In this document: piece after piece, positions 5,839 through 31,898 of the stretch
Layout of the letters: each line of letters begins with the position of its first letter
Position numbering within the stretch: the first letter of the stretch is position 1
DNA from: Candidatus Sericytochromatia bacterium
GTDB lineage: Bacteria; Cyanobacteriota; Sericytochromatia; UBA7694
Direction: 5' to 3'
Assembly: GCA_964229355.1 (NCBI GenBank)
Contig: CAXRDE010000005.1
Span: forward strand, 1 to 37,130
DNA: 37,130 nt
The notes under the pieces: model-generated
Seen by the model: the letters and a program-made list of their open reading frames with translations, nothing else
The model's database searches: none
What the model was told of the DNA's origin: nothing
Position numbers and translations under genes: made by a program

Positions 5839-6789
5839 CTAACGCCGCAGGAGCCACGCCACAAAACGTTCGTAAGGGGGTGTGAGTATCTCTTGCCCCC
5901 GCAGCATATTCAGCCACTGGGGGGGAATCCCCTCAACACCGTAGATATAGCCTGCAAGTCCGCCCGTCACACAGGCGGTGGTATCAGTATCTTCTCCCAG
6001 ATTCACGGCCTTGAGCACCGCCTCACGGTACGAGCTGCTGGTCAACACACACCAATACGCCGCCTCAAGGGTGTCCAATACATGACCCCTGCCGGAAATT
6101 TTCTCTGCAGGGGTATCGGCAAAGGTGCCCGCCAAAATGCGGCCATAAAACGGCAACTGGGGCTCAGCACAGTCCTCAGTGGCCCGCTGCAAGGCCACTG
6201 AAAAGTCTGAGTCCAGGTAGCTGAAGCACTGCACATAATGCTGACAGGCCGCAATGACCTGTGGGTGAGCGTGAGTCACCGCAGACACTTGCGCCACAAG
6301 CTCAGGATCACTGCCCCAGGCCTTTTGCCAGAGCGCCACCGGCAACATGCGCATTAAAGACCCATTGCCCTGGCTTTGTTCGTGGGTTAACCCTTTCAGC
6401 GCCAGGGGTTGGTTCCAAAAGAACTCTGAAATCACGTACTGCCGTAAGGCCTCTGCCGTGGTGTTGCCAATGTCAAAAACCTGCTGATCGACGGTGTACT
6501 TTGCCTCTTGCTGCCACTGCAGAAAATGCACGATCAAATGCTTTAAAAAGGCCTCTTCTTCGCCAGCCACAGGGGGCTGCTGAAAAAAGGTTTCCAGGGT
6601 GGCCAGGGTCATGGAGGTATCGTCGGACCAGGTGCCCGGAGGCTGCTCGTGGGTGCCATACCCATTCATGGTGGTCACGGGCTGCACATCAAACACCTGA
6701 CGGTCGGTAAACTCATGGGGAACGCCCAGGGCATCAGCCACTGCAGCGCCCCATAAAGCGCCCAACATTTGCTCTCGGTTTCCAGACAT
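5839..6789 (-). CDS. ADP-ribosylglycohydrolase family protein (DraG/ARH-like)
   Basis: N-terminal MLGALWGAAVADALGVPHEF matches the ARH family signature, and the C-terminal region has the conserved GEDTDTTACVTGGLAG-type di-metal motif. SD GGAAGAGGAG lies 7 nt upstream of the ATG. Confidence 0.8.
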   Translation of the reverse strand: MSGNREQMLGALWGAAVADALGVPHEFTDRQVFDVQPVTTMNGYGTHEQPPGTWSDDTSMTLATLETFFQQPPVAGEEEAFLKHLIVHFLQWQQEAKYTVDQQVFDIGNTTAEALRQYVISEFFWNQPLALKGLTHEQSQGNGSLMRMLPVALWQKAWGSDPELVAQVSAVTHAHPQVIAACQHYVQCFSYLDSDFSVALQRATEDCAEPQLPFYGRILAGTFADTPAEKISGRGHVLDTLEAAYWCVLTSSSYREAVLKAVNLGEDTDTTACVTGGLAGYIYGVEGIPPQWLNMLRGQEILTPPYERFVAWLLRR

Positions 6790-6826
6790 ATCACAACTCC
6801 TCTTCCTTCCGGGGTTACCGGAAAAA

Positions 6827-6855
6827 TTGGCAGCTCGGAAGGGCTAGCGTATAAT
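6827..6855 (+). promoter_or_regulatory. sigma70-type promoter (TTGGCA-17nt-TATAAT) for the 6895 gene
   Basis: -35 TTGGCA at 6827-6832, a 17-nt spacer, -10 TATAAT at 6850-6855, then SD CAGGAG at 6884-6889 before ATG 6895. Read directly from the sequence. Confidence 0.55.
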
Positions 6856-6894
6856 TAGAGCACGAACCCTCAAACACCTTCATCAGGAGCCATC

Positions 6895-7764
6895 ATGAAC
6901 ATGCGTTTTGCCACTCTTGCCTTATCTGCACTTCTCTTGCTTAGCTTTCAGCACTCCACTTTCGCAGCGGAATCCTTATCCTCTCATTATACACCAGCCC
7001 CCCAGAGCAATACGGCAGAGGTTTTTACCCTGGCACAAGCCACACAGTCCAGGAGCATTGCAGTGGTCGATTTCAATAATGATACGGGCAAAAGCGAGCA
7101 TGATCATCTCAAGCGGGGCATTTCTGAATCATTAATGACCAAACTGGCTCGGCGTCCTGAATTAACCCTGGTAGAGCGGGGCCAATTGTCCAAAGCGATT
7201 CAAGAATTAGGCTTTAGTCAATCGGTATACGCCAGTGGTACCGAAGCCAAAGCCATTGGTAAAATGGCGGGGGCGAGCTATCTGGTCACCGGCAACGTGG
7301 TCAAAGCGGGCGACCGCTTTGAAATCAATGTACGCATGCTCGATGTAGAAACGGCTCAGGTGTTGGTCAGCGAAAGTTACCGTTTTCAGAACGAAAACGA
7401 CATTCTGCTGGTGGTGGACTACCTCTCGCTCTTGATTCCCCGCAAGCTCGGGCTTTATGTCAGCGAGCGCGAAATGGACATGGCCAAAAGTCAGCTGCGC
7501 ACCAGCCACACGGTAGCCGACGCCGGTCAGGCCCAGGCCCCCGATAATAGCTGGATTTGGTGGGCCACCGGCGGCGTGGTACTGGCCGCTGCCATTGTAG
7601 GCATTGCCATTGTGGCCTCTCGCCCACAAAATATCAACCAACGGGTGGTCATTGGGGATGACAGCCGTCTGGCAGACCGTATCAACAATCGCACAGGTAA
7701 TAACAACGCCACCACGCCAGCAGAGGCGGGACCCGCCTGGAATATTCCTTTGCTGCGTTTTTAA
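6895..7764 (+). CDS. secreted protein with CsgG/LpoB-like domain and C-terminal TM anchor (hypothetical)
   Basis: The signal peptide is MNMRFATLALSALLLLSFQHSTFA. The block IAVVDFNNDTG...ELTLVERGQL...YLVTGNV...FEINVRMLDVET resembles the CsgG/LPP20-type fold. A single C-terminal TM segment WIWWATGGVVLAAAIVGIAIVA is present. The family assignment is from memory only. Confidence 0.45.
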   Translation: MNMRFATLALSALLLLSFQHSTFAAESLSSHYTPAPQSNTAEVFTLAQATQSRSIAVVDFNNDTGKSEHDHLKRGISESLMTKLARRPELTLVERGQLSKAIQELGFSQSVYASGTEAKAIGKMAGASYLVTGNVVKAGDRFEINVRMLDVETAQVLVSESYRFQNENDILLVVDYLSLLIPRKLGLYVSEREMDMAKSQLRTSHTVADAGQAQAPDNSWIWWATGGVVLAAAIVGIAIVASRPQNINQRVVIGDDSRLADRINNRTGNNNATTPAEAGPAWNIPLLRF

Positions 7765-7770
7765 CCGCCT

Positions 7771-8910
7771 GTGATTACCCTGCCCGCTGAACACACCAAA
7801 TGGACCCATATTCACCTGGGCGCCTTGCGACACAATGTGCGGCACCTGCGCAGTTGCGCCCCTCAGGCCCATCTGATGGGCGTGGTTAAAGCCAATGCCT
7901 ATGGCCACAATATTGACGTGGTGGTGCCGGCGTTGGCCGCAGAAGGCATTCAACACTTTGGTGTGGCGACCCTGGCAGAGGCCCTGAGTCTCAAAACCCT
8001 GCTGGCCTACGCGCCTCCCGCCATGATTCTGGTGCTGGGGGCCATGCCTACCCATCAATATGCCCGGGCCATTAGCGAAAACCTGCAGTTTATGCTGCAC
8101 ACCCCTGAAGACTTACCGCTGATTGCACAGCTGGCTCGCACCCACCAACAGCGGGCCCGCCTGCACCTTAAAATTGATACCGGCATGGGCCGGGTGGGCT
8201 TTTTGCCCCGAGATTTAGCTCAGGTCCTGAACGCCTGTCAACGCTACGCTAAATTTATTGACGTGGTGGGCGTTTGCTCTCACCTGGCCACCGCCGATGA
8301 CGACAATCAAACCCATGCCTTGCACCAAATTGAGCAATTTGCCCAATGTCGTACCCAGTGTGAAGCCCACCCTTTGTTTCAAGCGCAGCGTCCGCTCTTT
8401 CATTTGGCCAATAGCGACGGTTGTCTACGCTTTCCTGAAAGCCATCACGACATGGTGCGCCCGGGCATTGCCTTGTATGGCTACACCGGCATTGAAGCCT
8501 GTCAAAAAGACCTGCGTCCCGTGCTGTCCCTGCACAGCCAGATTGTGCAGCGTCGGCGAGTGCCTGCGGGTCACCCCATTGGGTATGGCAAGACGTTTAT
8601 TACCCAACGCGAGAGCGAGTTGGCCCTGGTGTCTATTGGTTACGAAGACGGCGTGCCGCGCAATTTGTCGAATCGCTTTAACATGGCCTATGGTGAGGCC
8701 ATATTGCCGGTGTTGGGGCGTGTGTCGATGGATCAATGCGTGGTGGACCTCACCGACTTAAGGGAAGATTTGCCCCGCGTGGGGGAATTTTTAACACTGC
8801 TGAGTGAAGAGCTACCCGCCTACATTTGGGCAGAGCGCTTACAGACCATTCCCTACGAAATTCTCACCAGTCTGGGCCAGCGTTTACCGCGTATTCCCAT
8901 TCCGGCCTGA
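7771..8910 (+). CDS. alr: alanine racemase
   Basis: PLP-lysine motif VVKANAYGHN near the N-terminus and the overall ~380-aa length. The GTG start lies 6 nt after the upstream stop. Confidence 0.85.
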   Translation: MITLPAEHTKWTHIHLGALRHNVRHLRSCAPQAHLMGVVKANAYGHNIDVVVPALAAEGIQHFGVATLAEALSLKTLLAYAPPAMILVLGAMPTHQYARAISENLQFMLHTPEDLPLIAQLARTHQQRARLHLKIDTGMGRVGFLPRDLAQVLNACQRYAKFIDVVGVCSHLATADDDNQTHALHQIEQFAQCRTQCEAHPLFQAQRPLFHLANSDGCLRFPESHHDMVRPGIALYGYTGIEACQKDLRPVLSLHSQIVQRRRVPAGHPIGYGKTFITQRESELALVSIGYEDGVPRNLSNRFNMAYGEAILPVLGRVSMDQCVVDLTDLREDLPRVGEFLTLLSEELPAYIWAERLQTIPYEILTSLGQRLPRIPIPA

Positions 8911-8985: not shown

Positions 8986-10542
8986 ATGGCAAACACCCTT
9001 ACTGCCTTTCAAAACGAACCCTTTACCGACTTTGAAGCCACCGACAATCGCGAACGCATGCAAGCCGCTCTCGAAAAAGTCGCCGCTGACTTTGGCAAAA
9101 GCTATCCCATGATCATTGATGGCGAAGCCGTTACCGTCGCAGAACAGTTTTCGAGCTATAACCCCTGCCAAAAAGACCAGGAACTGGCCTTTTTTCAAAA
9201 AGGAACCCGCGAGCACGCCGTTCAGGCCATCGAATCCGCTCACAAACATTTCGCCACCTGGTCCAAAACCACCGCCACCGAGCGGGCGGACTACCTGCTC
9301 AAAGGAGCCGCCAAAATGCGCGAGCAAAAATTTGAGCTGGCTGCCACCATGGTTTACGAAGTGGGCAAAAGCTGGGCCGAAGCGGACGGTGACGTGGCTG
9401 AAGCCATTGACTTTTTAGAGTTCTACGCCCGCGAAATGCTGCGTTTAGACAAACCCCAACCCCTGACCCCCTACCCTGGCGAAGAGAATAGCTATGTGTA
9501 CCAGGCCATGGGCGTGGGCGCGATTATTCCCCCCTGGAACTTTCCGCTGGCTATTTTGGCGGGTATGACCACCTCTGCCATTGTGACCGGCAATACCGCC
9601 GTATTAAAACCCGCCGAAGAGGCCATGCTCATTGGCTGGAAATTTATGGAAATCATGGAATCTGTGGGTCTACCCAAAGGCGTGATTCAGTTTATTACCG
9701 GCGACGGCGCGGAGCTGGGCCAGGAAATGGTGCAAAACCCCCTCACCCGTTTTATTAACTTCACGGGCTCTATGCAGGTGGGCCTGCTGATCAACGAACA
9801 GGCCGCCAGGCGCACGCCGGGTCAAAAATGGATCAAACGGGTGATTGCCGAAATGGGCGGCAAAGACGCCATTGTGGCCGATGAAACCGCGGATCCTGAA
9901 GATGTGGCCACCGGTATTGTGGCCTCAGCCTTTGGCTTTCAGGGCCAAAAGTGCTCAGCCTGTTCACGGGCCATTATTCATGAGGCCATTTATGACGAAG
10001 TGCTCGACAAAGTAGCGGCCAAAACCTTAGACCTCAAGGTGGGCAATGTAGAAGACCGCAGCATGTTTATGGGCGCCGTCATCAATCAGGAGTCCGAAGA
10101 CAAAGTCTTAAAATACATTGAAATCGGCAAACAAGAAGGCCGTCTGGTGGTGGGTGGTGAAAAGCTCTCCGATCAGGGACACTTTATTGCACCCACCGTT
10201 TTTGCAGATATTGCCCCCGATGCCAAACTCGCCCAGGACGAGATCTTTGGCCCTGTGGTGGCCTTTATTAAAGCCAAAGATTTTGAAGATGCCCTCGCCA
10301 TTGCCAATAACACCGATTACGGCTTAACCGGTGCGCTGTACTCTCAAGACGAAAGCCGTCTGGAGCGGGCCAAAGCAGACTTTTTTGTGGGCAATTTGTA
10401 CCTGAACCGCAAATGTACCGGAGCCCTGGTAGACGTGCATCCTTTTGGCGGTTTTAACCTTTCTGGCACCGACTCCAAAGCCGGAGGTCGCGATTATCTG
10501 CACCACTTCTTACAGGCAAAATCCATTAGCCGTAAGATTTAA
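8986..10542 (+). CDS. rocA: 1-pyrroline-5-carboxylate dehydrogenase (L-glutamate gamma-semialdehyde dehydrogenase), Bacillus RocA type
   Basis: 518 aa, colinear with Bacillus RocA. Shared blocks include EPFTDF, IDFLEFYAR, FNFPLAI, KRVIAEMGGKD, GQKCSA and NNTDYGLTGA. There is an aldehyde-dehydrogenase catalytic Cys/Glu context. SD AAGGAG lies 10 nt upstream. Confidence 0.9.
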   Translation: MANTLTAFQNEPFTDFEATDNRERMQAALEKVAADFGKSYPMIIDGEAVTVAEQFSSYNPCQKDQELAFFQKGTREHAVQAIESAHKHFATWSKTTATERADYLLKGAAKMREQKFELAATMVYEVGKSWAEADGDVAEAIDFLEFYAREMLRLDKPQPLTPYPGEENSYVYQAMGVGAIIPPWNFPLAILAGMTTSAIVTGNTAVLKPAEEAMLIGWKFMEIMESVGLPKGVIQFITGDGAELGQEMVQNPLTRFINFTGSMQVGLLINEQAARRTPGQKWIKRVIAEMGGKDAIVADETADPEDVATGIVASAFGFQGQKCSACSRAIIHEAIYDEVLDKVAAKTLDLKVGNVEDRSMFMGAVINQESEDKVLKYIEIGKQEGRLVVGGEKLSDQGHFIAPTVFADIAPDAKLAQDEIFGPVVAFIKAKDFEDALAIANNTDYGLTGALYSQDESRLERAKADFFVGNLYLNRKCTGALVDVHPFGGFNLSGTDSKAGGRDYLHHFLQAKSISRKI

Positions 10543-10551
10543 GCTTTTTCA

Positions 10552-10586
10552 CCCGTAGTGCCCAAAAGCACTACGGGTATTTCTTT
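10552..10586 (+). terminator. rho-independent terminator after rocA
   Basis: Perfect 10-bp stem CCCGTAGTGC / GCACTACGGG with loop CCAAAA, followed by TATTTCTTT. Confidence 0.65.
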
Positions 10587-10603
10587 ACGAAAGCAGACCC
10601 TTG

Positions 10604-11119
10604 ATGAAGGTATTCGGCACCATTGCACTCGCCCTGAGCAGCTTATTACTCCTGAGTCCCACAGTTCTGGCGGCTCAGCCTCAGCCCGTGACCCAAACCC
10701 AGTCTTCTCACAATCAGACAGAGGCCAGACAGGCCGCCGAAGCGCTATTCAAAGCGCTGGATTACGCCAAAAGCTACGACGAAACCATTCAACGCCTGGT
10801 GGATAGCCAAATTCAGCAAATGCCTGTTCTGGCCCCTTATAAACCCGAGATGCTGGCTTTTTTAAACAAATACATGTCCTGGGACAGCATCAAAGAGGAA
10901 GTCATTGTGATGTACAGTGAAACCTTTACCGCCCAGGAACTGCGCGAGCTTGCCGCCTTTTACCAAACGCCCCTCGGTAAAAAAGCCCTTAAAAAAATGC
11001 CTGGGCTGGTGGCCCGAGGTGCAGCCCTGGGACAGCAACGGGTTCAGGCCCACGAAGCCGAATTCGAAGCCATGATCGAACAGGCCCGAAAAACCCGCAA
11101 CATCCAGGAAACCCCCTGA
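10604..11119 (+). CDS. DUF2059-family secreted protein
   Basis: Signal peptide MMKVFGTIALALSSLLLLSPTVLA. The C-terminal block FTAQELRELAAFYQTPLGKKALKKMP is characteristic of DUF2059. Confidence 0.55.
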   Translation: MKVFGTIALALSSLLLLSPTVLAAQPQPVTQTQSSHNQTEARQAAEALFKALDYAKSYDETIQRLVDSQIQQMPVLAPYKPEMLAFLNKYMSWDSIKEEVIVMYSETFTAQELRELAAFYQTPLGKKALKKMPGLVARGAALGQQRVQAHEAEFEAMIEQARKTRNIQETP

Positions 11120-11121
11120 GC

Positions 11122-12090
11122 ATGTGGTTGCAAAACCACTGGTACGCGGTGTTAGACAGCAACGAACTCAAACAAGGTCCTGTTAAAGCAGAACGCCTGG
11201 GCGAGTTCCTGGTGTTTTGGCGAGACAGCCAGGGCAAAGCCCATGTACAACAGGACCGCTGTCCTCATTTGGGTGCTAGCCTGAGCCAGGGCAACATTCA
11301 AAACAATTGTTTGGTGTGCCCCTTTCATGGCTTTGCCTTTGACGCTGAAGGCCAGTGTCAGCGTATTCCCGCCAATGGTCCCCAGGGCAAGATTCCACCC
11401 CAGCTCACCGTGCACACCTACCCCAGTCAAGAAAAACACGGCCTAATTTGGATCTGGTACGGTGAGGCACCGCCCACCCCAGAGCCTCCTTTTTTTGAAG
11501 AGCTAAAACCTTTACATTACGGTACCCTTACCGATCAATGGCCGGTACACATCAGCCGCGCCATCGAAAATCAACTGGACAGCGCCCACCTGCCTTTTGT
11601 CCACCATAACACCATCGGACGACGTCTTTCGCCCTTTATGCAGGGCCCTTATGTCGAAGCCGATGCCGCAGGCATTCAGGTGTGGAACTTTCAGCACTTA
11701 GATGCCGACAAACAGCTGAGCCAGCAAGAGCTTAAAGGCCATATCAAGGGCAGAGCCCCGGCATTGGTACTGCTGTTTCCGGGAATTTGGCGTTTAAAAA
11801 TCAGTGAAGGGTTTTACCAGTTTATTGCTTTTGTGCCCGTCAACGCCACCACCACCCATTATTACTTACGCCACTATCGCAATTGGAAAGTCCCGCTTGT
11901 CGACAGCCTGGTGTCCAAAGCCATGTCTTTGAGTAACCGCATCATTTTAAATCAGGATAAGCGGGTAGTGTGCGCCCAGTTGCCTATTAACAGTGCTGAG
12001 GCAGAGCACGAACATCTGATTGGTGCCGATCGTGCCATTGCGCAGTTTCGCCGTTGGGTGCGTCACGCCCAGGACGAAGGACAATCATAG
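11122..12090 (+). CDS. Rieske [2Fe-2S] non-heme iron oxygenase (PaO/Tic55-like)
   Basis: The Rieske box is CPHLGASL...CPFHGF (CxH-x17-CxxH). The start lies 3 nt after the DUF2059 stop, which suggests translational coupling. A C-terminal mononuclear-iron domain of ~200 aa follows. Confidence 0.75.
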   Translation: MWLQNHWYAVLDSNELKQGPVKAERLGEFLVFWRDSQGKAHVQQDRCPHLGASLSQGNIQNNCLVCPFHGFAFDAEGQCQRIPANGPQGKIPPQLTVHTYPSQEKHGLIWIWYGEAPPTPEPPFFEELKPLHYGTLTDQWPVHISRAIENQLDSAHLPFVHHNTIGRRLSPFMQGPYVEADAAGIQVWNFQHLDADKQLSQQELKGHIKGRAPALVLLFPGIWRLKISEGFYQFIAFVPVNATTTHYYLRHYRNWKVPLVDSLVSKAMSLSNRIILNQDKRVVCAQLPINSAEAEHEHLIGADRAIAQFRRWVRHAQDEGQS

Positions 12091-12128
12091 ACTTGTCTAA
12101 AGCCTAAGCTTTCGGTTTTAATAGGGTT

Positions 12129-12680
12129 ATGATCGAACGTCTTTTGCGCATGCAAACCATTGATGGCCCTTACCTGGGGCCCGCGCGTCCTCCGGAGGCT
12201 TCCCCCGCCACACCCCGTGCGGTGTTTCAGCTGCCTGAGGCAAAAACCCCTCCGGTACCGTCTGCCAAACTCCAATCTCTGGGCCAACAACTGCATGTGC
12301 AACAGGCCCACAACACGGTGGCCTCACAACAACGCAGCATGCAGCATAGCGTTCAACACATTGCCCGGCAGACCCTACAACCCGCCACCCTGCAATCGCT
12401 CCAACAGCATGGTGTGAGCTCAGTATTGGGGCTATCAGCCCAGGAACTGTTTTTATTGAGCCTGCTCAAACCCCAAAGCGAGGGTAAATCCCTCACCGGT
12501 CAGGAGCAATGGGTCCCCAATGCCAGTGCACAGCTCTCTTTCATTCACACGCCCCGCACCTTTTTGCACACCTTGCCCAGGGCCCGCCAACTGCGCCTGC
12601 GGGGCCTATCCTTTATGACCTTCCGCTTTCAATGGGAATCCGATGAAGCCGCGCCCGATGAAGCGGGCATGCTAAAATGA
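12129..12680 (+). CDS. hypothetical Gln/Pro-rich protein
   Basis: 183-aa ORF with no recognisable motif and a Q-rich central region. Coding potential is supported only by length and codon periodicity. Confidence 0.4.
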   Translation: MIERLLRMQTIDGPYLGPARPPEASPATPRAVFQLPEAKTPPVPSAKLQSLGQQLHVQQAHNTVASQQRSMQHSVQHIARQTLQPATLQSLQQHGVSSVLGLSAQELFLLSLLKPQSEGKSLTGQEQWVPNASAQLSFIHTPRTFLHTLPRARQLRLRGLSFMTFRFQWESDEAAPDEAGMLK

Positions 12681-12725
12681 TGCCGTTTCCACACCAGGAT
12701 TTTTTTGAATAAAGGCGGCGGCTTC

Positions 12726-14825
12726 ATGACCGGTAAAAAAAGCTTTCTTACAGGACTGTGTCTTGTGTTAAGCCTCTTTTTATTTGGTCCTTCGGCCATG
12801 GCCCAAATTCCAGGCCTGGACAGCATTGATACCGGCGGCACCCAGAGTAAACTGCCCGAGATTCAGTTTGTTAACCCACAAACCAGCGAAGAAACCCAGG
12901 AAGAAGTGAAGGCGATCCGCTCTCTGTTTGACCGCCAGCCCTGGCAGTTCAATGCAGACACCCTGCGTGAAGCCTGGGACGACATTCAGTCGGTGCCCCA
13001 GGAATTCCAAAAAATCACCCAATTGATTCAAACCCCTGAAGTCCCTAACGCCTGGATTGCCAGCTTTGCGGTGGGCCTGGTGCTCTTTTTTGTTCTCAGC
13101 TATTGGAGCGATCGTCGACTGGCCCTGGCAGCCAGCCAGCTCATGCAATGGATGCCTGTGGCCTGGCCCTTTTGGCTGCGGCGACTGTGCAAAATGTTGC
13201 TGGTGGTGGCCAGCCGCCTGATTTTTCCAGCGTTACTGCTACTGATTTTACGACTAACCTGGAGCGCATTTCCCGGAGACGCCCTGTATTTTCCATTGCT
13301 GATTAAAGGGGCTTTGCTATTTTTGGCCTATCGGGGCGGCCAGACCTTATTGCACGAAATTCTATACACTGAGCGCAGTCATTTGCTCGAAAATGCAGAC
13401 GAGCGCGTGGCGCAGCGCATTTACCGACGCACCCATTATTTCTTAGGTTTTACGGTCCTGATTTGGTTTGGTATTTTCGTTTTTCAGGCCCTGGCATACC
13501 GCCCTGATTTTATTGAGCTGCTCTATTTTATCTACTCACTGAGCTTGTTTAGCTTTGCCGCCTATCTGCTGTCCCGTAAAAGTGAAGTGTTTTCGCTCTT
13601 GCCGGACATCAATGAACCGGTGTATCAGCGTTTTGTATTTTTTCTACGCCGCTTTTATACCTATGTAAGCGCTTTTTGCTTGATCCTGGGCTTGCTGTGG
13701 CTCAGCGGGTACCGTCCGCTGGTCAACATGCTCTTCTTGCGATCCTGGGCCATTATTGGCTTAATTCTGGGGGTACGTCTCTTGCATCGGGTGCTGGGGC
13801 ATGGCCTCAACCATTATTTTAAGCAAGAGGTTCATCCCGAACAAAAATTAGTACCCGCTATTTTACAAAGCGCAACCGTGGTCGAAACCCTGTTGCTTTT
13901 TCACGGCGTTTTGGCGCTACTGGGCCTGCGGGATCCTTTTATTACCCTGCTTGAACAGCCCATTGCCACCATCGGCAGCAATTCGATCATTAGCGCTTTT
14001 TCTTTTTTAAACGGCATTATTGCCCTGGTGCTGGTGTGGATGATCAGCCGCATTGTACAGGCCTTTTTAGAAGAGCGGGTCTACCCCGCCAACTTCGATG
14101 TGGGCTTAGAGCAAATGATCAACCTGACCGTGTTCTACACCCTGATGATTTTAGGGCTCTTGATCGCCCTGAATATTATTGGTCTGGACCTCTCGGTGTT
14201 CACTATTTTTGCCGGTGCTTTGGCCTTTGGTGTGGGCTTTGGCTTGCAGGGCATTGCCAAAAATTTTGTGAGTGGTCTGATCCTGATTTTTACCGGTCTC
14301 GTTAAAAAGGGCGACTACATCACCGTCTCGGATCACTCGGGGTACATTCAAGACGTCAGCTGGAAAAAGGTTCACCTGCGCACCCCTGATCATGTGGACT
14401 TAATTATTCCCACGGTAGATCTGGTGGAGTCTCCAATTGTGAACTGGAGTTATTCGGGCAATATTGTGCGTATGCATGTGCCTGTTGGGGTCTCGTACCA
14501 GTCAGATATGAATGTGGTGAAAAAGGCCCTGATGGAAGCCGCCAAAGAACATAAAGAGGTCAAAAGTTATCCGGCCCCCGATGTGTGGCTTACAGACTTT
14601 GGCGATAACTCGGTCAACTTTGAATTATTGGTGTGGGTGGACTGTCGCCGCATTACCCTGGCCCGCCTCAAAGGCGAGTTGAACTTTATCATCTGGAACA
14701 AGCTGGCGGATCACCACATCGAAATTCCATTCCCACAACGGGATTTGCACCTGCGTTCGGTGGCCCCTGAGCTGCAACAGTGGATACAGAAAGAGCACCC
14801 GCCAGAAGCGAGTGCTCAGGAATAA
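12726..14825 (+). CDS. mechanosensitive ion channel, MscS family (large MscK-like form)
   Basis: The architecture is signal peptide, periplasmic domain, multiple TM helices, then the conserved MscS pore and beta-domain region (GDYITVSDHSGYIQDVSWKKVHLRTPD...IIPT). ATG 12726 has an AAAGGCGG SD, whereas the 12705 TTG does not. Confidence 0.8.
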   Translation: MTGKKSFLTGLCLVLSLFLFGPSAMAQIPGLDSIDTGGTQSKLPEIQFVNPQTSEETQEEVKAIRSLFDRQPWQFNADTLREAWDDIQSVPQEFQKITQLIQTPEVPNAWIASFAVGLVLFFVLSYWSDRRLALAASQLMQWMPVAWPFWLRRLCKMLLVVASRLIFPALLLLILRLTWSAFPGDALYFPLLIKGALLFLAYRGGQTLLHEILYTERSHLLENADERVAQRIYRRTHYFLGFTVLIWFGIFVFQALAYRPDFIELLYFIYSLSLFSFAAYLLSRKSEVFSLLPDINEPVYQRFVFFLRRFYTYVSAFCLILGLLWLSGYRPLVNMLFLRSWAIIGLILGVRLLHRVLGHGLNHYFKQEVHPEQKLVPAILQSATVVETLLLFHGVLALLGLRDPFITLLEQPIATIGSNSIISAFSFLNGIIALVLVWMISRIVQAFLEERVYPANFDVGLEQMINLTVFYTLMILGLLIALNIIGLDLSVFTIFAGALAFGVGFGLQGIAKNFVSGLILIFTGLVKKGDYITVSDHSGYIQDVSWKKVHLRTPDHVDLIIPTVDLVESPIVNWSYSGNIVRMHVPVGVSYQSDMNVVKKALMEAAKEHKEVKSYPAPDVWLTDFGDNSVNFELLVWVDCRRITLARLKGELNFIIWNKLADHHIEIPFPQRDLHLRSVAPELQQWIQKEHPPEASAQE

Positions 14826-14842
14826 ATCAAAGGGATAAAGGA

Positions 14843-15250
14843 TTAGCGTCCGGGGGGACGGTTACCCGGTGGGGGTCCAGGAGGACGGTTACCACCGGGA
14901 GGTCCTTGCTGTGGACGGGGTGGCCGTCCTGGAGGTGGGCCGCCCTGTGGGCCTGGAGGAGGACCGCCCTGAGGGGCCTGAGCTCCTGTAGCATTTTCTA
15001 CAGACTCAATGGTTCTTAATAAGGCCTCGGCCACTTCTTTACCCAGTGAATAAGGGATAGCAATACGGGTATGTACCGGAACACACTCTTTTTGTAAGGT
15101 ATCGACTTCTTCTTGCATAATAGGGGGCAAGTAGCCGAAATCAATAACCACGTTTTCGCGATCCACGCGGAAACGGAAGAGGTTTGCGGGTTGAGAAAGG
15201 GTATCTAAATCTCTCGCGAGTAAATCATCGGGTGAGAGCGGTTGTACCAT
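14843..15250 (-). CDS. hypothetical protein with ~85-aa N-terminal domain and Pro/Gly-rich disordered C-terminal tail
   Basis: The C-terminal tail is QGGPPPGPQGGPPPGRPPRPQQGPPGGNRPPGPPPGNRPPGR, with repeated GPPPG / NRPPG units. Confidence 0.5.
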   Translation of the reverse strand: MVQPLSPDDLLARDLDTLSQPANLFRFRVDRENVVIDFGYLPPIMQEEVDTLQKECVPVHTRIAIPYSLGKEVAEALLRTIESVENATGAQAPQGGPPPGPQGGPPPGRPPRPQQGPPGGNRPPGPPPGNRPPGR

Positions 15251-15330
15251 GGATGTCTCCTACCTTAAAATGGAATGCTTCATGCTACCATAGTTAAGCC
15301 CCAGAATCAAATCCCCGGAGTGTAGAGCCC

Positions 15331-15585
15331 ATGGAAGAACTGCACCTTTTCGAGGAGCTGGACGTTCCTGCCCCGGAACCGTCACCCCCCCAAAAAAAGA
15401 AAAAAACACTGCCGGCGGATACCGACCGTGAATTTTGGGAAGATTTAGAGCGGTGGCGCCCCCTGTGCAGTACGGTAGAACAGGAAATTGCTTTTTTGAC
15501 CCGTTATTTAGAACGGTTCAAGTTTGAGGGTGATCGTAAACGTTTGAACACCCTCAAACACTACCTCTATGTGTACGGCGACTAG
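15331..15585 (+). CDS. hypothetical small protein (84 aa)
   Basis: ORF with an acidic N-terminus and a KKKK patch. No motif recognised. Confidence 0.35.
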   Translation: MEELHLFEELDVPAPEPSPPQKKKKTLPADTDREFWEDLERWRPLCSTVEQEIAFLTRYLERFKFEGDRKRLNTLKHYLYVYGD

Positions 15586-27768: not shown

Positions 27769-28128
27769 ATGAACAAAATTAACCTACACCACAAATTAAC
27801 CCTGTTTTCCGAGCATTGGTCTCCCAGGGTCATTGCCGAAATGAATGACTACCAGTTTAAACTGGTCAAAATCAAAGGGGAATTTACCTGGCATGCCCAT
27901 GAGGACACAGACGAAGTCTTTTTGGTACTGGAAGGTGAAATGGGCATTGTCTTTAGAGACCAAACTGTTCTACTGTCTCAAGGTGAAATGCTCGTGGTTC
28001 CCAGGGGCGTCGAGCATAAACCCTTTGCTGAGCAAGAGTGTAAAGTCATGCTGATTGAGCCCAAAGGGGTTGTTAATACCGGGGAATCTGGTGGTCCGCT
28101 AACGGCGGAAAATGATGTGTGGATCTAA
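27769..28128 (+). CDS. cupin-domain protein
   Basis: The cupin motifs are present: G(x)5HxH-like [18 protein letters not shown] and [13 protein letters not shown]+C is lower than the flanking core genes. Confidence 0.65.
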
Positions 28129-28236: not shown

Positions 28237-28254
28237 CCTGAGATTGTACCTGTA
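28237..28254. repeat. 18-bp direct repeat copy 1 (CCTGAGATTGTACCTGTA), att-like core
   Basis: Exact match to 29142-29159. The sequence 28255-28310 on the minus strand encodes YDCERVWVHTPQQMVQVQSQEECFKLSVNQR*, a diverged copy of the radical-SAM gene C-terminus. Confidence 0.7.
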
Positions 28255-28425
28255 CCATCTGCTGGGGCGTATGAACCCAAACTCGCTCACAATCATACTG
28301 GAACAAATATGAGCGTATTATCGCTATCATCGTCATGGAGTCCGCATGGAACTAAAATCACAGTATAATTAAGACCTTTTTAAACCATAGAAAAATAATT
28401 CTGATAAGGCATTCACGTAAAAAAC

Positions 28426-28884
28426 ATGGAGTTTCAACACTATACAAAGCAGTATAAAGATCAGTGTTTAAAAGTTTTTGAAAGTAATATAGGTCAATAT
28501 TTTGATGCCTCAGAGCGAGAATTGTATACAGAATATCTGAATGCTTTAAGTCTCGATATAAACGCTAGCTATTATGTCTACTTGTTACATGGCGAAGTTA
28601 TTGCCTGTGGTGGCTATTTGTTGAATGTAAACGTTTGTGCTTTAGCGTGGGGAATGGTTCATCGGGATTTTCATAATAAGGGTATTGGTACAAAGCTTAT
28701 CGATTTTCGTTTAAGCCAGCTGTCGAAAAATAAAGATGTAAAAACTGTACTCATCGAGACTTCTCAACATACAAAAGGCTTTTACACACAACACGGTTTT
28801 GTTCAAACCCAGGTGATTAAAGACGGCTTTGGAAAAAATATTGATCGTATTTTGATGGAAAAGGTCATCGCACATCATCCATAA
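28426..28884 (+). CDS. GNAT-family N-acetyltransferase
   Basis: GNAT motif A HRDFHNKGIGTKLI. The gene is markedly AT-rich: a hand count of its first 100 nt gives about 31 G+C. Confidence 0.75.
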   Translation: MEFQHYTKQYKDQCLKVFESNIGQYFDASERELYTEYLNALSLDINASYYVYLLHGEVIACGGYLLNVNVCALAWGMVHRDFHNKGIGTKLIDFRLSQLSKNKDVKTVLIETSQHTKGFYTQHGFVQTQVIKDGFGKNIDRILMEKVIAHHP

Positions 28885-29106
28885 AAGATGCTTCAACTAC
28901 CGCCGACCAGGAGAATTCAAAGTCGAAATACTCACTTGCTTACGACAAACATCTTTTAATCGGGAGCCAATGCCATGGTCTGCACAATACCTCTGCTTTC
29001 TTCCTCAAACGATTAATTAATTGTAAACACAAAACGTCATTCATTAAAACCATAAAGATCCCTCACAAGTACAGGAAGCAGGAAGGATAAGTCCTAAAGC
29101 ATTTTC

Positions 29107-31425
29107 TCACCCCGAGTGTAGATTCAAGCGCACAGCCTGCCCCTGAGATTGTACCTGTAGCGTTTGCTGAGAAACATGGGTCAAGACCCGTTCACAGCGC
29201 AACACCAGATCCGGTGAAGTAAAGAAGGGAATCCGCTCAAAGGACTGATCTACCTCGTGAATACTCAACGCCCGGCGGGCCATGCGCTGGGCTTTGCTGA
29301 GCTGTTGCTGCTGGGCATAAAGCTCAGCCAGGTGCAAGTAAGCCTCAGTCAGGTAAATGTCTTTGTGAATGGCACTCTGCAGAGCCTGAATCGCCTGAGG
29401 ATAAGCCTGTTGGGTACGCCACCATAGCCCGGCCACCAGATCTCCCTCAGCCAGATTGTGCCCCTGTTGCCGTGCCACATTGAGCCAGTGTTGTGCTTTG
29501 TCTAGCTGTTGGCGTTCAAGGGCAAAGTACGCAGCGCGAACAGCTAGACGGTCCACAAAGGGGAAGCGTTTAAGCACGCTCTCGTTAATAAATTCAGCAG
29601 CGCGAGCATTGCCCTGCTGCTTCAGACTGCGCACCTGTTCTAAGGTGTTTTCGAACACCGTCAGGCCATTGTGGGCCAACAGCTTGTCTTTACCAAAGCG
29701 AGAGAGGTACAGAAAAAAGGCAATGCGCGGCAATTGCTGCCAAAAAGTAGCGCGGTAGCTTAACCACACTTCATCGCTAAAACGCTCCTGAAACAGATGG
29801 GCCTGGGCATTATCCATGCCGCTTTCAAGGGTATAGCGAATATCGCTGGCCCAGTCTAACTTAAGATCGTCGGCATTGGCGGTTACCCCGTGGGCTTCGC
29901 GGTTGCGGTAAATGGGGGTGTTTTTTTTGAGAATGAAGGGTGAAGTGGCCAGAGAGTTAATAAACGCCTGATTTTTGCGAATAAACTGCACCGTCTCGGT
30001 AGCGGTTTCAAGGGTCTCGCCCGGGAAACCAAAGATCAAAAAGGCAAAGGTAAAAATGCCCGCCTCGTGCAGATTTTTGTACACGGTTTCGGTAATGGCA
30101 TTGTCGGTGCCTTTGACCATTTTTTGCGCCAGTTCGGCATTGGCGGACTCTAAGCCGGTCAGCACGAACAAACAGCCCGCCCGCCGCCAGAGATCTGTGG
30201 TTTCACGGTCAAACCCTTTTTGCAGTCTGGCCATGGTGTACCAGTGCACGTCCAACTCACGCTCAAGCAGGGCGTTCGACAATTGGCGTCCATAATTGGG
30301 CGACATGGTTTCATCACTAAACTGAAAGTGACGGACCCCGTATTTTTGCTGCAACAGTGCCATGTCATCCGCAATTTTGTAGGGCTTGCGAGAGCGAAAA
30401 CCCGCAAACTGCATAAAATGATCACAAAAAGTACAGTCTTTCCAATAGCAATCCCGAGACCCCAAAATGGGCAAAACAAGCTCTGCAGACCAATAATTAT
30501 CGAGATCTAAGCCATCAAAATCAGGGGCCTCAATGTCATTCATAGACAGGGCTGTGCCAATGCCGTTGACCTGTAGGCGACCATCGGGCCGATTGTAAAT
30601 GAGTGAGGGCACTTCTTCCAGCGGCAAATCGCCGTTAAGGGACTCAATCAGCTTTAACAGCGGCACCTCTCCTTCCCCTTTGACCGCACTGTGAATCAAA
30701 GTTTGAAAAGCGGGGTGGTGATCTACCTTGAGGCCATCGGCAATTTTTGAGAAATAAGCGCCCCCCACGGTAATGTGAGTGTCGGGCAGGTGCTCACGAA
30801 TTAGACGGGCCAGGGTAAAGGTGGGAATCATTTGATACTCTCGAGCGATGGAAAAGCCCACCAGATCGGGAGGATCTTTTTTGAGTTCAGGCAAAACTTT
30901 TTGCGTGTAAAAGTCTAAAAACGGATTGCTGATCTGGTTCTGACTGGCGCGAATAACCTCTGCAGAGTCGGCATAGCCTTCTTCCATAAAAAAGTGGTCC
31001 AGGGTCATGCGCGATCCCGGATACAAGGCATTAAAACAAGCAAACACCTTATCCAGGTCTTGCTTGGCCTGCAAAAGGGCTTCGTAATCGTAAAAGGCTT
31101 CGGTTTTAAAGACCCGTTTGATATGATCTAGATCGGGCAGATCTTGCAAAAGCTGTTGTAATTCCAGGTCTTGCTCTGGCGTAAGCCAGGCTTTACGGGC
31201 CTGAAATTGGGTCTCTAGATAGGCTTTATCGAAGGCCTGATCGTAAAACTGTAGATTGAGGTCCCACTGGTCAATCGCGTGTCCGTGTTGCCTGACATAA
31301 CTGCATAAACTGGGCAACGATAAATAGGGCATGCTCGGTTCCCAGTAGGGGCAAAAAAGCAAAAGGGTTTTGATAGACATCAAGGCAACAGTCACTTTCT
31401 CAGGATAATGCCTTGAACATAGCAT
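29107..31425 (-). CDS. B12-binding-domain radical SAM protein with C-terminal TPR repeats
   Basis: N-terminal B12-binding-like region (IKTLLLFCPYWEP...YLSLPSLCSYVRQHGH). The Fe-S cluster motif CYWKDCTFC at residues 326-334 was verified on the DNA at 30424-30450. C-terminal TPR-like helices are present (AAYFALERQQLDKAQHWLNVARQQG...EAYLHLAELYAQQQQLSKAQ). Confidence 0.8.
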   Translation of the reverse strand: MLCSRHYPEKVTVALMSIKTLLLFCPYWEPSMPYLSLPSLCSYVRQHGHAIDQWDLNLQFYDQAFDKAYLETQFQARKAWLTPEQDLELQQLLQDLPDLDHIKRVFKTEAFYDYEALLQAKQDLDKVFACFNALYPGSRMTLDHFFMEEGYADSAEVIRASQNQISNPFLDFYTQKVLPELKKDPPDLVGFSIAREYQMIPTFTLARLIREHLPDTHITVGGAYFSKIADGLKVDHHPAFQTLIHSAVKGEGEVPLLKLIESLNGDLPLEEVPSLIYNRPDGRLQVNGIGTALSMNDIEAPDFDGLDLDNYWSAELVLPILGSRDCYWKDCTFCDHFMQFAGFRSRKPYKIADDMALLQQKYGVRHFQFSDETMSPNYGRQLSNALLERELDVHWYTMARLQKGFDRETTDLWRRAGCLFVLTGLESANAELAQKMVKGTDNAITETVYKNLHEAGIFTFAFLIFGFPGETLETATETVQFIRKNQAFINSLATSPFILKKNTPIYRNREAHGVTANADDLKLDWASDIRYTLESGMDNAQAHLFQERFSDEVWLSYRATFWQQLPRIAFFLYLSRFGKDKLLAHNGLTVFENTLEQVRSLKQQGNARAAEFINESVLKRFPFVDRLAVRAAYFALERQQLDKAQHWLNVARQQGHNLAEGDLVAGLWWRTQQAYPQAIQALQSAIHKDIYLTEAYLHLAELYAQQQQLSKAQRMARRALSIHEVDQSFERIPFFTSPDLVLRCERVLTHVSQQTLQVQSQGQAVRLNLHSG
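29142..29159. repeat. 18-bp direct repeat copy 2 (CCTGAGATTGTACCTGTA) inside the 3' end of the radical-SAM gene
   Basis: Exact 18/18 match to 28237-28254. It encodes LQVQSQ of the radical-SAM C-terminus on the minus strand. Confidence 0.7.
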
Positions 31426-31481
31426 AAGATCAGTTATCTTAGAAGATACAGATGCGTTTAAAAAGGGAGGATCTCAACCGG

Positions 31482-31898
31482 ATGATGTCTACAGAAGAGG
31501 CCCAGGCCTTCGCGGCAGAGTGGTTACCCGCCTGGACGGGCAATCAACCGGAAGCCCTGGCCGCGTATTATGCCGATGACTGTTTTTACATGGACGCAGG
31601 CATACCCCAAGGAGCCCGGGGTAAAGGCGAATTGCTTAACTACTTGCGCAAATTACTGGCACAAAATCCCCACTGGGTATGGACCCAGCTCGAAGCCATT
31701 CCCATGGAAGACGGTTTTTTAAACAAATGGTTGGCAAAAATTCCCGTGGGAGACAAGGTGATTGAGTGTGTGGGCGTCTGCCTGGTGCAGTTTAACCCCC
31801 AGGGTAAAATTCGGCGCAATGAGGTGTATTTTGATCGCACAGAGCTGGTAGCGGCGGTCTACGCCCTTCAAAAAAGCCGTCAGGCCAAAGGCCTTTAA
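31482..31898 (+). CDS. SnoaL-like / NTF2-fold protein
   Basis: About 139 aa with the WLPAWTG...ALAAYYADDCFYMD pattern typical of the SnoaL_2 / NTF2-like superfamily. ATG 31482 has SD AAGGGAGGA 10 nt upstream, which lies inside the longer 31452 ORF. Confidence 0.5.
   Translation: MMSTEEAQAFAAEWLPAWTGNQPEALAAYYADDCFYMDAGIPQGARGKGELLNYLRKLLAQNPHWVWTQLEAIPMEDGFLNKWLAKIPVGDKVIECVGVCLVQFNPQGKIRRNEVYFDRTELVAAVYALQKSRQAKGL

Follow-up and report, generated by a model that had tools for sequence, protein, structure and literature searches.

The closest described relatives of the protein reported here are B12-binding (class-B) radical S-adenosylmethionine (SAM) enzymes. In one of them, OxsB, the crystal structure documents that a loop with the cysteine spacing CX4CX2C binds the SAM-cleaving cluster (PMC9204698), and a CX4CX2C megacluster is among the spacing variants known at RadicalSAM.org (PMC9477430). 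A gene with this spacing is located on the minus strand, positions 29107 to 31425, of a 37,130-nucleotide stretch of DNA from a Candidatus Sericytochromatia bacterium (contig CAXRDE010000005.1, positions 1 to 37,130); “the window” indicates this complete stretch. The gene product combines a class-B radical SAM enzyme with a C-terminal region of tetratricopeptide repeats (TPR). Judged from its sequence and its structural model, there is little doubt that the protein is a functional class-B radical SAM enzyme. No description of a fusion of a B12 radical SAM enzyme with TPR was found in the literature searched, and a 2026 review of the B12 radical SAM enzymes (PMC12931638) nowhere mentions CX4, TPR, PqqD, or the recognition element (RRE) of the peptides that are synthesized by ribosomes and modified after translation (RiPPs). 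The architecture is a rare, lineage-restricted variant of a known enzyme class, which comes from an uncultured lineage and could be modeled with confidence.

The open reading frame (ORF) is uninterrupted and comprises 772 amino acids (aa) when counted from the first ATG, M1. Three candidate starts had to be considered, M1 at position 31425 (772 aa), M16 with the ATG at position 31380 (757 aa), and M32 at position 31332 (741 aa). The most likely start is M16, because the sequence KTLLLFCPYWEPS is kept in the orthologous loci and forms the first β-strand of the model, and because a database member with 757 aa exists. At every orthologous locus, KTLLLFCPYWEPS is in frame and 4 to 6 residues past a start codon, and in the AlphaFold2 model it is strand beta-1 (E5-9) of the predicted Rossmann-like domain. 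The database gene calls differ, with M32 (741 aa) used in one and M16 (757 aa) used in one cluster member. The coding sequence is given here as positions 29107 to 31380 of the minus strand, 757 aa plus the stop codon. A gene call at M32 deletes the beta-1 strand of the cobalamin-binding domain, and the same N-terminal truncation occurs in several ortholog entries, e.g., P0005, P0006, and P0009-P0014. The preliminary description of this gene, made from the DNA letters, held in every particular of the sequence, and only the start codon had to be corrected to M16.

Pfam, the sequence motifs, and the structural model agreed that a class-B radical SAM enzyme is fused to TPR, as had been proposed. 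In the numbering of the 772-aa ORF, Pfam assigned Radical_SAM (PF04055) to residues 326-482 with 51.7 bits (cutoff 29.5) and TPR_19 to residues 672-721 with 28.0 bits (cutoff 25); a B12-binding match at residues 174-231 stayed below the threshold. The AlphaFold2 model of the 757-aa protein was based on a 38-sequence alignment and reached a mean predicted local distance difference test (pLDDT) value of 94.1 and a predicted template modeling (pTM) score of 0.90, with no segment below a pLDDT of 50. A radical SAM fold was present at high confidence. The fold of the model matched those of TsrM (26.5), AprD4 (20.5), TokK (20.5), OxsB (20.0), MgmA (18.2), and CysS (17.8), and Foldseek concurred, placing both TsrM and OxsB near 1e-16.

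The N-terminal Rossmann-like cobalamin-binding domain comprises residues 1-250 in M16 numbering (positions 30631 to 31380, minus strand), into which a helical segment of some 130 aa is inserted at residues 41-170 (positions 30871-31260, minus strand). Two motifs of this domain are invariant, GG (G206 G207, in TVGGAYFS) and GEGE (235-238), both of which are said to contact cobalamin (PMC9204698). The partial TIM-barrel core of the radical SAM domain follows at residues 296-520, approximately (positions 29821 to 30495, minus strand). Here, SDET (D356 E357) at the position of the GGE motif, GLES (G409 E411 S412) as the ribose motif, and FGFPGE (G451-E455) at the position of the GxIxGxxE motif are all invariant, and in a profile alignment they fall on ADE(363), GVES(436), and the next motif of OxsB, respectively. 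The protein thus exhibits the cysteine triad, a PF04055 score above the cutoff, the barrel fold, and the SAM-binding motifs of the radical SAM superfamily, and the Rossmann-like domain N-terminal of the barrel, as judged from fold and motifs, is the architecture of class B. A helical linker or cap (residues ~521-575, positions 29656 to 29820, minus strand; helices 524-541, 552-562, and 564-568 in the model) leads from the barrel to the TPR superhelix. The latter comprises residues 577-713 (positions 29242 to 29652, minus strand), and its tandem helix-turn-helix repeats form seven antiparallel helices plus one long helix, which amount to about 3.5 to 4 repeats. The protein ends with a long helix and tail, residues 725-755 (positions 29116 to 29208, minus strand), modeled as one helix from 725 to 755. 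On the basis of sequence and model, the enzyme seems to possess everything needed for class-B chemistry and presumably binds cobalamin and an iron-sulfur cluster.

The putative cluster-binding loop is CYWKDCTFC (positions 30424 to 30450, minus strand; codons TGC TAT TGG AAA GAC TGT ACT TTT TGT). Its cysteines C326, C331, and C334 in the numbering of the 772-aa ORF correspond to C311, C316, and C319 in M16 numbering. The ORF contains nine cysteine residues, at positions 3, 25, 41, 130, 326, 331, 334, 418, and 744, and the loop at 326-334 is the only CXnCX2C pattern, which was also read again from the codons on the DNA. When 1.84 billion cluster representatives (50% identity) were scanned exhaustively with HMMER, 1,760 relatives were obtained at E ≤ 1e-30, and 147 of the top 150 representatives were examined for their loops and tails. 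The spacing CX4CX2C was present in 120 of 120 listed homologs, at identities from 100% to about 32%, with the same triad conserved, so that a lineage-specific insertion and use of a different set of cysteines were not found. Essentially all single-domain relatives among the 147 representatives carried C-Y-W-x-[K/R]-C-x-F-C, usually followed by D-H, and CX3CX2C was found throughout only in giant proteins with three to five tandem radical SAM modules. These giant proteins (P0128, P0129, P0134, P0144, P0158, P0191, and P0212) are 1,500 to 2,300 aa long, with class-B modules in tandem. They were rejected as close relatives, since their high rank came from summed domain scores and every module had the CX3CX2C spacing.

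OxsB was the best sequence match in the PDB, with an E value of 1.5e-06 for the single sequence and 8.6e-17 for the family profile. The OxsB loop CDYSRCTFC aligned with CYWKDCTFC column for column, and alignment with the CX3CX2C loop of TsrM needed a one-residue gap. Because the spacing is invariant in the homologs and the OxsB loop is structurally documented, CX4CX2C is an ordinary family trait, which is neither new nor informative on the substrate. The preliminary description was therefore right about the class-B radical SAM-TPR architecture, the CX4CX2C spacing, and the lack of a partner gene (see below) but overstated the significance of the spacing. This result should help to keep such motifs from being flagged as anomalies. 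A fourth cysteine residue, Cys403 in M16 numbering (C418 in ORF numbering), is located in the segment A-G-C-L-F (positions 30172-30174 of the window) and is conserved in at least 90% of the aligned homologs, with Gly in its place in three short paralogs.

The homology to relatives without TPR stops at about residue 565, with the aligned stretches of the query ending at about 560-570. This junction is used frequently. C-terminal extensions of at least 90 aa started from it in 67 of the 138 single-domain representatives. At least 26 of these 67 extensions contained PqqD (PF05402, Pfam) and many more exhibited an L-x-L-C-D-G signature, so that a PqqD-type domain was assigned to about half of the extended relatives; only two to three of the 67 were TPR. 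In RiPP enzymes, the leader peptide is recognized by PqqD-like domains. As judged from these alignments, the TPR region sits in the architectural slot of a peptide-recognition domain, and this is the main reason why a peptide or protein may be the substrate.

Related loci of species-representative genomes placed the host in Candidatus Sericytochromatia/Blackallbacteria. TPR-type orthologs were found in seven of these genomes (L002-L008) in addition to the organism of the window (L001). A paralog of 585 aa that does not contain TPR, 41 to 47% identical, occurred in several of the same Sericytochromatia metagenome-assembled genomes (L010-L014). In a neighbor-joining tree of 556 core columns, all TPR-bearing sequences formed one clade, which was the sister of the short Sericytochromatia paralogs, and Nitrospina, archaeal, and other relatives were outside. 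This topology is consistent with a duplication within the lineage and one later acquisition of TPR. The orthologs were 66 to 71% identical in the core and 43 to 53% in the TPR region; because this identity is kept across orthologs, both parts should be under constraint. In the deeper TPR subclade, the respective identities were 52 to 58% and 23 to 32%, and conservation of the TPR region was mainly on the structural repeat positions. Only four 50%-identity clusters were close to the query (38 to 67% identity) in the exhaustive search; one of them aligned through TPR, and another was a 566-aa truncated sequence of a TPR-type ortholog. Altogether, the combination of class-B radical SAM with TPR was limited, within the top 150 representatives, to two 50%-identity clusters close to the query and about three that are distant. 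The fusion is, as far as these sequence collections indicate, rare and so far almost restricted to Ca. Sericytochromatia.

The gene is monocistronic as judged from the orientation of its neighbors, with a divergent SnoaL-like gene upstream (positions 31452 to 31898, plus strand) and a convergent GNAT gene downstream (positions 28426 to 28884, plus strand). The neighbors in the window, encoding SnoaL-like, GFA, molybdopterin oxidoreductase, GNAT, and cupin proteins, did not suggest a pathway. A scan for promoters and terminators between positions 28100 and 31950 yielded fewer sites than shuffled controls, none of them of use. For a comparison of gene order, ORFs were called for the window as well as 14 related loci and clustered by BLASTP. 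Across the seven orthologous loci, the TPR-type gene had no conserved neighbor, save between near-identical genomes. In the 8 loci with the TPR-type gene, no small precursor gene adjoined it, and the intergenic gaps were too short for one. The earlier statements that the gene is monocistronic and has no linked partner or substrate gene were thus borne out in the loci compared. Since the gene is a true orphan, its substrate cannot be read from the context and is probably encoded at an unlinked site.

Scoring with curated families did not assign a named function. The highest-scoring family was TIGR04479 (PhpK P-methyltransferase) with 138.1 bits, compared to a cutoff of 600, followed by TIGR03975 (rSAM_ocin_1) with 129.7 bits, compared to a cutoff of 281.85 and with a match spanning residues 21-515 of the query, nearly its entire catalytic portion; relatives from the clade reached 101 to 137 bits on TIGR03975. 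The BchE cyclase model yielded 86.1 bits (cutoff 481), and pigment genes were absent from the window and the orthologous loci. The host lineage is described as nonphotosynthetic. The names “BchE cyclase” and “YgiQ” carried by homologs were rejected as generic. No NCBIfam cutoff was reached, which was also true for the eight other clade members scored. Assignment as a RiPP maturase was likewise not possible, with no Pfam match to PqqD in the query. An OxsB-type system was not present either, with no HD-domain neighbor and the N-terminal domain of OxsB unaligned (match from residue 167). The nearest curated families, PhpK, TIGR03975, and ApyD, are methyltransferases acting on peptides or phosphinates. 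The protein should be filed as a member of an uncharacterized class-B radical SAM subfamily and not under the name of a known enzyme. The CYWxxCxFC clade, which numbers 1,760 representatives or more at E ≤ 1e-30, is a large uncharacterized block of B12 radical SAM enzymes.

To understand the biological function, these data may be combined into a tentative model, to which we assign a probability of about 45%. In this model, the protein is a radical SAM enzyme of class B that probably functions as a C-methyltransferase, and its substrate would be a peptide or protein that has its gene at another site of the genome and is docked by the TPR region. By analogy with the characterized class-B enzymes, the three cysteines would hold a [4Fe-4S] cluster, and its fourth iron would bind SAM. 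Reductive cleavage of SAM would yield a 5′-deoxyadenosyl radical, which could remove a hydrogen atom at an unactivated carbon of the substrate; the resulting substrate radical would receive a methyl group from methylcobalamin on the N-terminal Rossmann-like domain; and a second SAM would remethylate the cobalamin. The TPR region would dock the substrate, a task that falls to a PqqD-type RRE at this site in many relatives. Methyl transfer, a peptide or protein as the substrate, and docking by TPR are what we infer from these analogies, and several points weigh against them. No substrate gene was identified. The analogy to RiPP enzymes comes from relatives that are only 30 to 36% identical, and the query has neither a PqqD domain nor an adjacent precursor gene. 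Of three loci with PqqD-fused relatives, only one showed an adjacency to the mcr genes for methyl-coenzyme M reductase (MCR), and an ortholog with 83% identity lacked it. The scores were far below the cutoffs for every curated methyltransferase family. TPR domains also act as scaffolds or oligomerization modules. Class-B enzymes also catalyze ring contraction (OxsB), polar methylation (TsrM), and dehydration (AprD4), besides aryl cross-linking (PbsB, PMC12257519), and methylation is only the commonest outcome in this class.

Three other explanations were weighed. An enzyme of the same class could act on a small molecule or lipid, such as a phosphinate, a hopanoid-like lipid, a cofactor, or a sugar, with TPR being responsible for assembly, membrane localization, or regulation. 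This possibility is somewhat less likely than the model above. All scores for families of this kind were far below the cutoffs, no linked pathway genes occurred in any of the 8 loci, and many members of the CYWxxCxFC clade have PqqD fused at this very junction. Alternatively, a peptide or protein may be the substrate of a nonmethylating radical reaction, for instance, a cross-link, an epimerization-like hydrogen abstraction, or a rearrangement, and cobalamin would then be an electron conduit or vestigial. The one structurally characterized CX4CX2C enzyme, OxsB, is indeed not a methylase (PMC9204698), and the B12 radical SAM enzyme PbsB forms a C-C biaryl cross-link in a RiPP (PMC12257519), but most of the annotated or characterized class-B enzymes are methylases (PMC9204698), and the strictly conserved GG and GEGE motifs argue against a vestigial cofactor site. 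Such a reaction is therefore improbable here.

A decaying gene, or one that had lost radical SAM chemistry, might also explain why the cluster motif departs from the canonical CX3CX2C, with further damage added by the insertion that abuts the gene and duplicated its 3′ end. This explanation is hardly tenable. The spacing is the same across hundreds of 50%-identity clusters and serves a SAM-cleaving cluster in OxsB, the ORF is intact with conserved SAM and cobalamin motifs, the model is confident through the C terminus, and the insertion alters at most about 11 of the last codons in a region where the tails of the orthologs vary anyway. Returning to the docking of a peptide or protein by TPR, a more specific extension, which we regard as rather unlikely, would be that the duplicated Sericytochromatia enzyme gained TPR in place of a PqqD-type element and now acts in trans, either on a whole protein or on a peptide from an unlinked gene, performing a bacterial housekeeping-type radical C-methylation or other radical modification of a protein, analogous to the modifications of MCR in archaea. 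If true, this would be TPR-based substrate recruitment, of which no description for radical SAM enzymes was found in the literature searched. Recruitment by TPR would then be a new recognition strategy for the modification of peptides or proteins by radical SAM enzymes, and the TPR region used as bait would provide a handle on the target.

The insertion at the 3′ end of the gene is flanked by two copies of a 55-nucleotide direct repeat. The proximal copy (positions 29142 to 29196) is inside the gene, contains the codons for CERVLTHVSQQTLQVQSQ, and overlaps the last part of the C-terminal helix and tail. The distal copy is at positions 28237 to 28291 and encodes CERVWVHTPQQMVQVQSQ on its minus strand. 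The first 18 nucleotides of the copies are identical, and the overall identity is 73%. On the minus strand, the tail of the gene continues from CERVLTHVSQQTLQVQSQ with 11 codons and a stop codon. Because the distal copy encodes CERVWVHTPQQMVQVQSQ, a diverged counterpart of these 18 C-terminal residues that is also followed by 11 codons and a stop codon, it is a relic of the C-terminal coding end of the gene. The 850 bp in between (positions 28292 to 29141, plus strand) have a guanine-cytosine content of 37%, compared to 50% in the gene, and contain the GNAT acetyltransferase gene as the only gene, which is absent from the orthologous loci. No integrase was present at the inserted segment. This arrangement agrees with the earlier assignment of the 3′ end as an integration target and could have arisen when a small element, perhaps an island of which a remnant is left, inserted here and restored the coding end. 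The enzyme was left intact, since at most the last 11 codons or so were exchanged, and the GNAT segment is not part of its function.

Several relatives outside the TPR-type clade exhibited neighborhoods of their own. The 585-aa paralog was followed by an overlapping gene for an alpha/beta-hydrolase and a gene for an HExxH protein of about 900 to 1000 aa (e.g., L011, positions 9887-15463); this block may form an operon and was seen only among closely related genomes. About 30 Nitrospinota genomes (L016-L056) harbored two CX4CX2C paralogs of about 600 and 603 aa in a strongly conserved same-strand tandem. The genes of the Gastranaerophilales/Vampirovibrio relatives (L055, L058, L060, L065, L071, L077, and L080) were always followed by that of a conserved helical protein of about 108 aa, which is highly charged and had no match in Pfam. 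In another clade (L064-L081), the gene for a small helical protein was upstream and that for an RHS/YD-repeat protein of about 267 aa was downstream. The helical protein of these Melainabacteria and the neighbors in the RHS clade could be partners or substrates of the respective enzymes. The idea of a TPR module split off as a separate protein was dropped, because the helical protein of the Melainabacteria showed no similarity to the TPR region of the query.

The protein may be compared with several known systems. The O-GlcNAc transferase is an analogy in architecture only; its TPR region is N-terminal and much longer, and its chemistry and catalytic fold are unrelated. The MCR-modifying methylase MgmA/QCMT (PDB 9CCB) is distant in sequence, much shorter at about 420 to 450 aa, and contains no TPR, and Sericytochromatia do not possess MCR. 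Among the archaeal relatives, a PqqD-fused protein with CX4CX2C, about 33% identical to the query (L082, positions 6001-8166; also L083 and L084), is encoded directly downstream of mcrBDGA at one locus; the linkage to mcr is compatible with the truncated contig of a second locus and absent from the third, and multiheme cytochromes are encoded on a sister contig of the mcr-adjacent locus. A 3(S)-methylhistidine on the gamma subunit of MCR has been described in the archaeal group ANME-2d, and its installing enzyme is unassigned (PMC12413448). The mcr-adjacent, PqqD-fused relative may be a candidate for this step, with the 83%-identical ortholog being located away from mcr.

OxsB from the biosynthesis of oxetanocin A (PDB 5UL2, 5UL3, and 5UL4) shares the CX4CX2C loop but is only about 14 to 17% identical to the query. 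Together with OxsA, a partner of the HD-domain type, it converts deoxyadenosine nucleotides, and it does not methylate. No OxsA-like gene is located near the query. The query scored less than half of the cutoff for TIGR03975 and has no PqqD domain, precursor gene, or RiPP cluster; however, the TIGR03975 and ApyD enzymes are also of class B and modify ribosomal peptides, and the relatives of the query likewise carry PqqD domains. The PhpK/BcpD enzymes (TIGR04479) contain no TPR, and no phosphinothricin or phosphonate genes are located near the query, but they are class-B methylcobalamin-dependent methylases, as is proposed here for the TPR-fused enzyme of Ca. Sericytochromatia.

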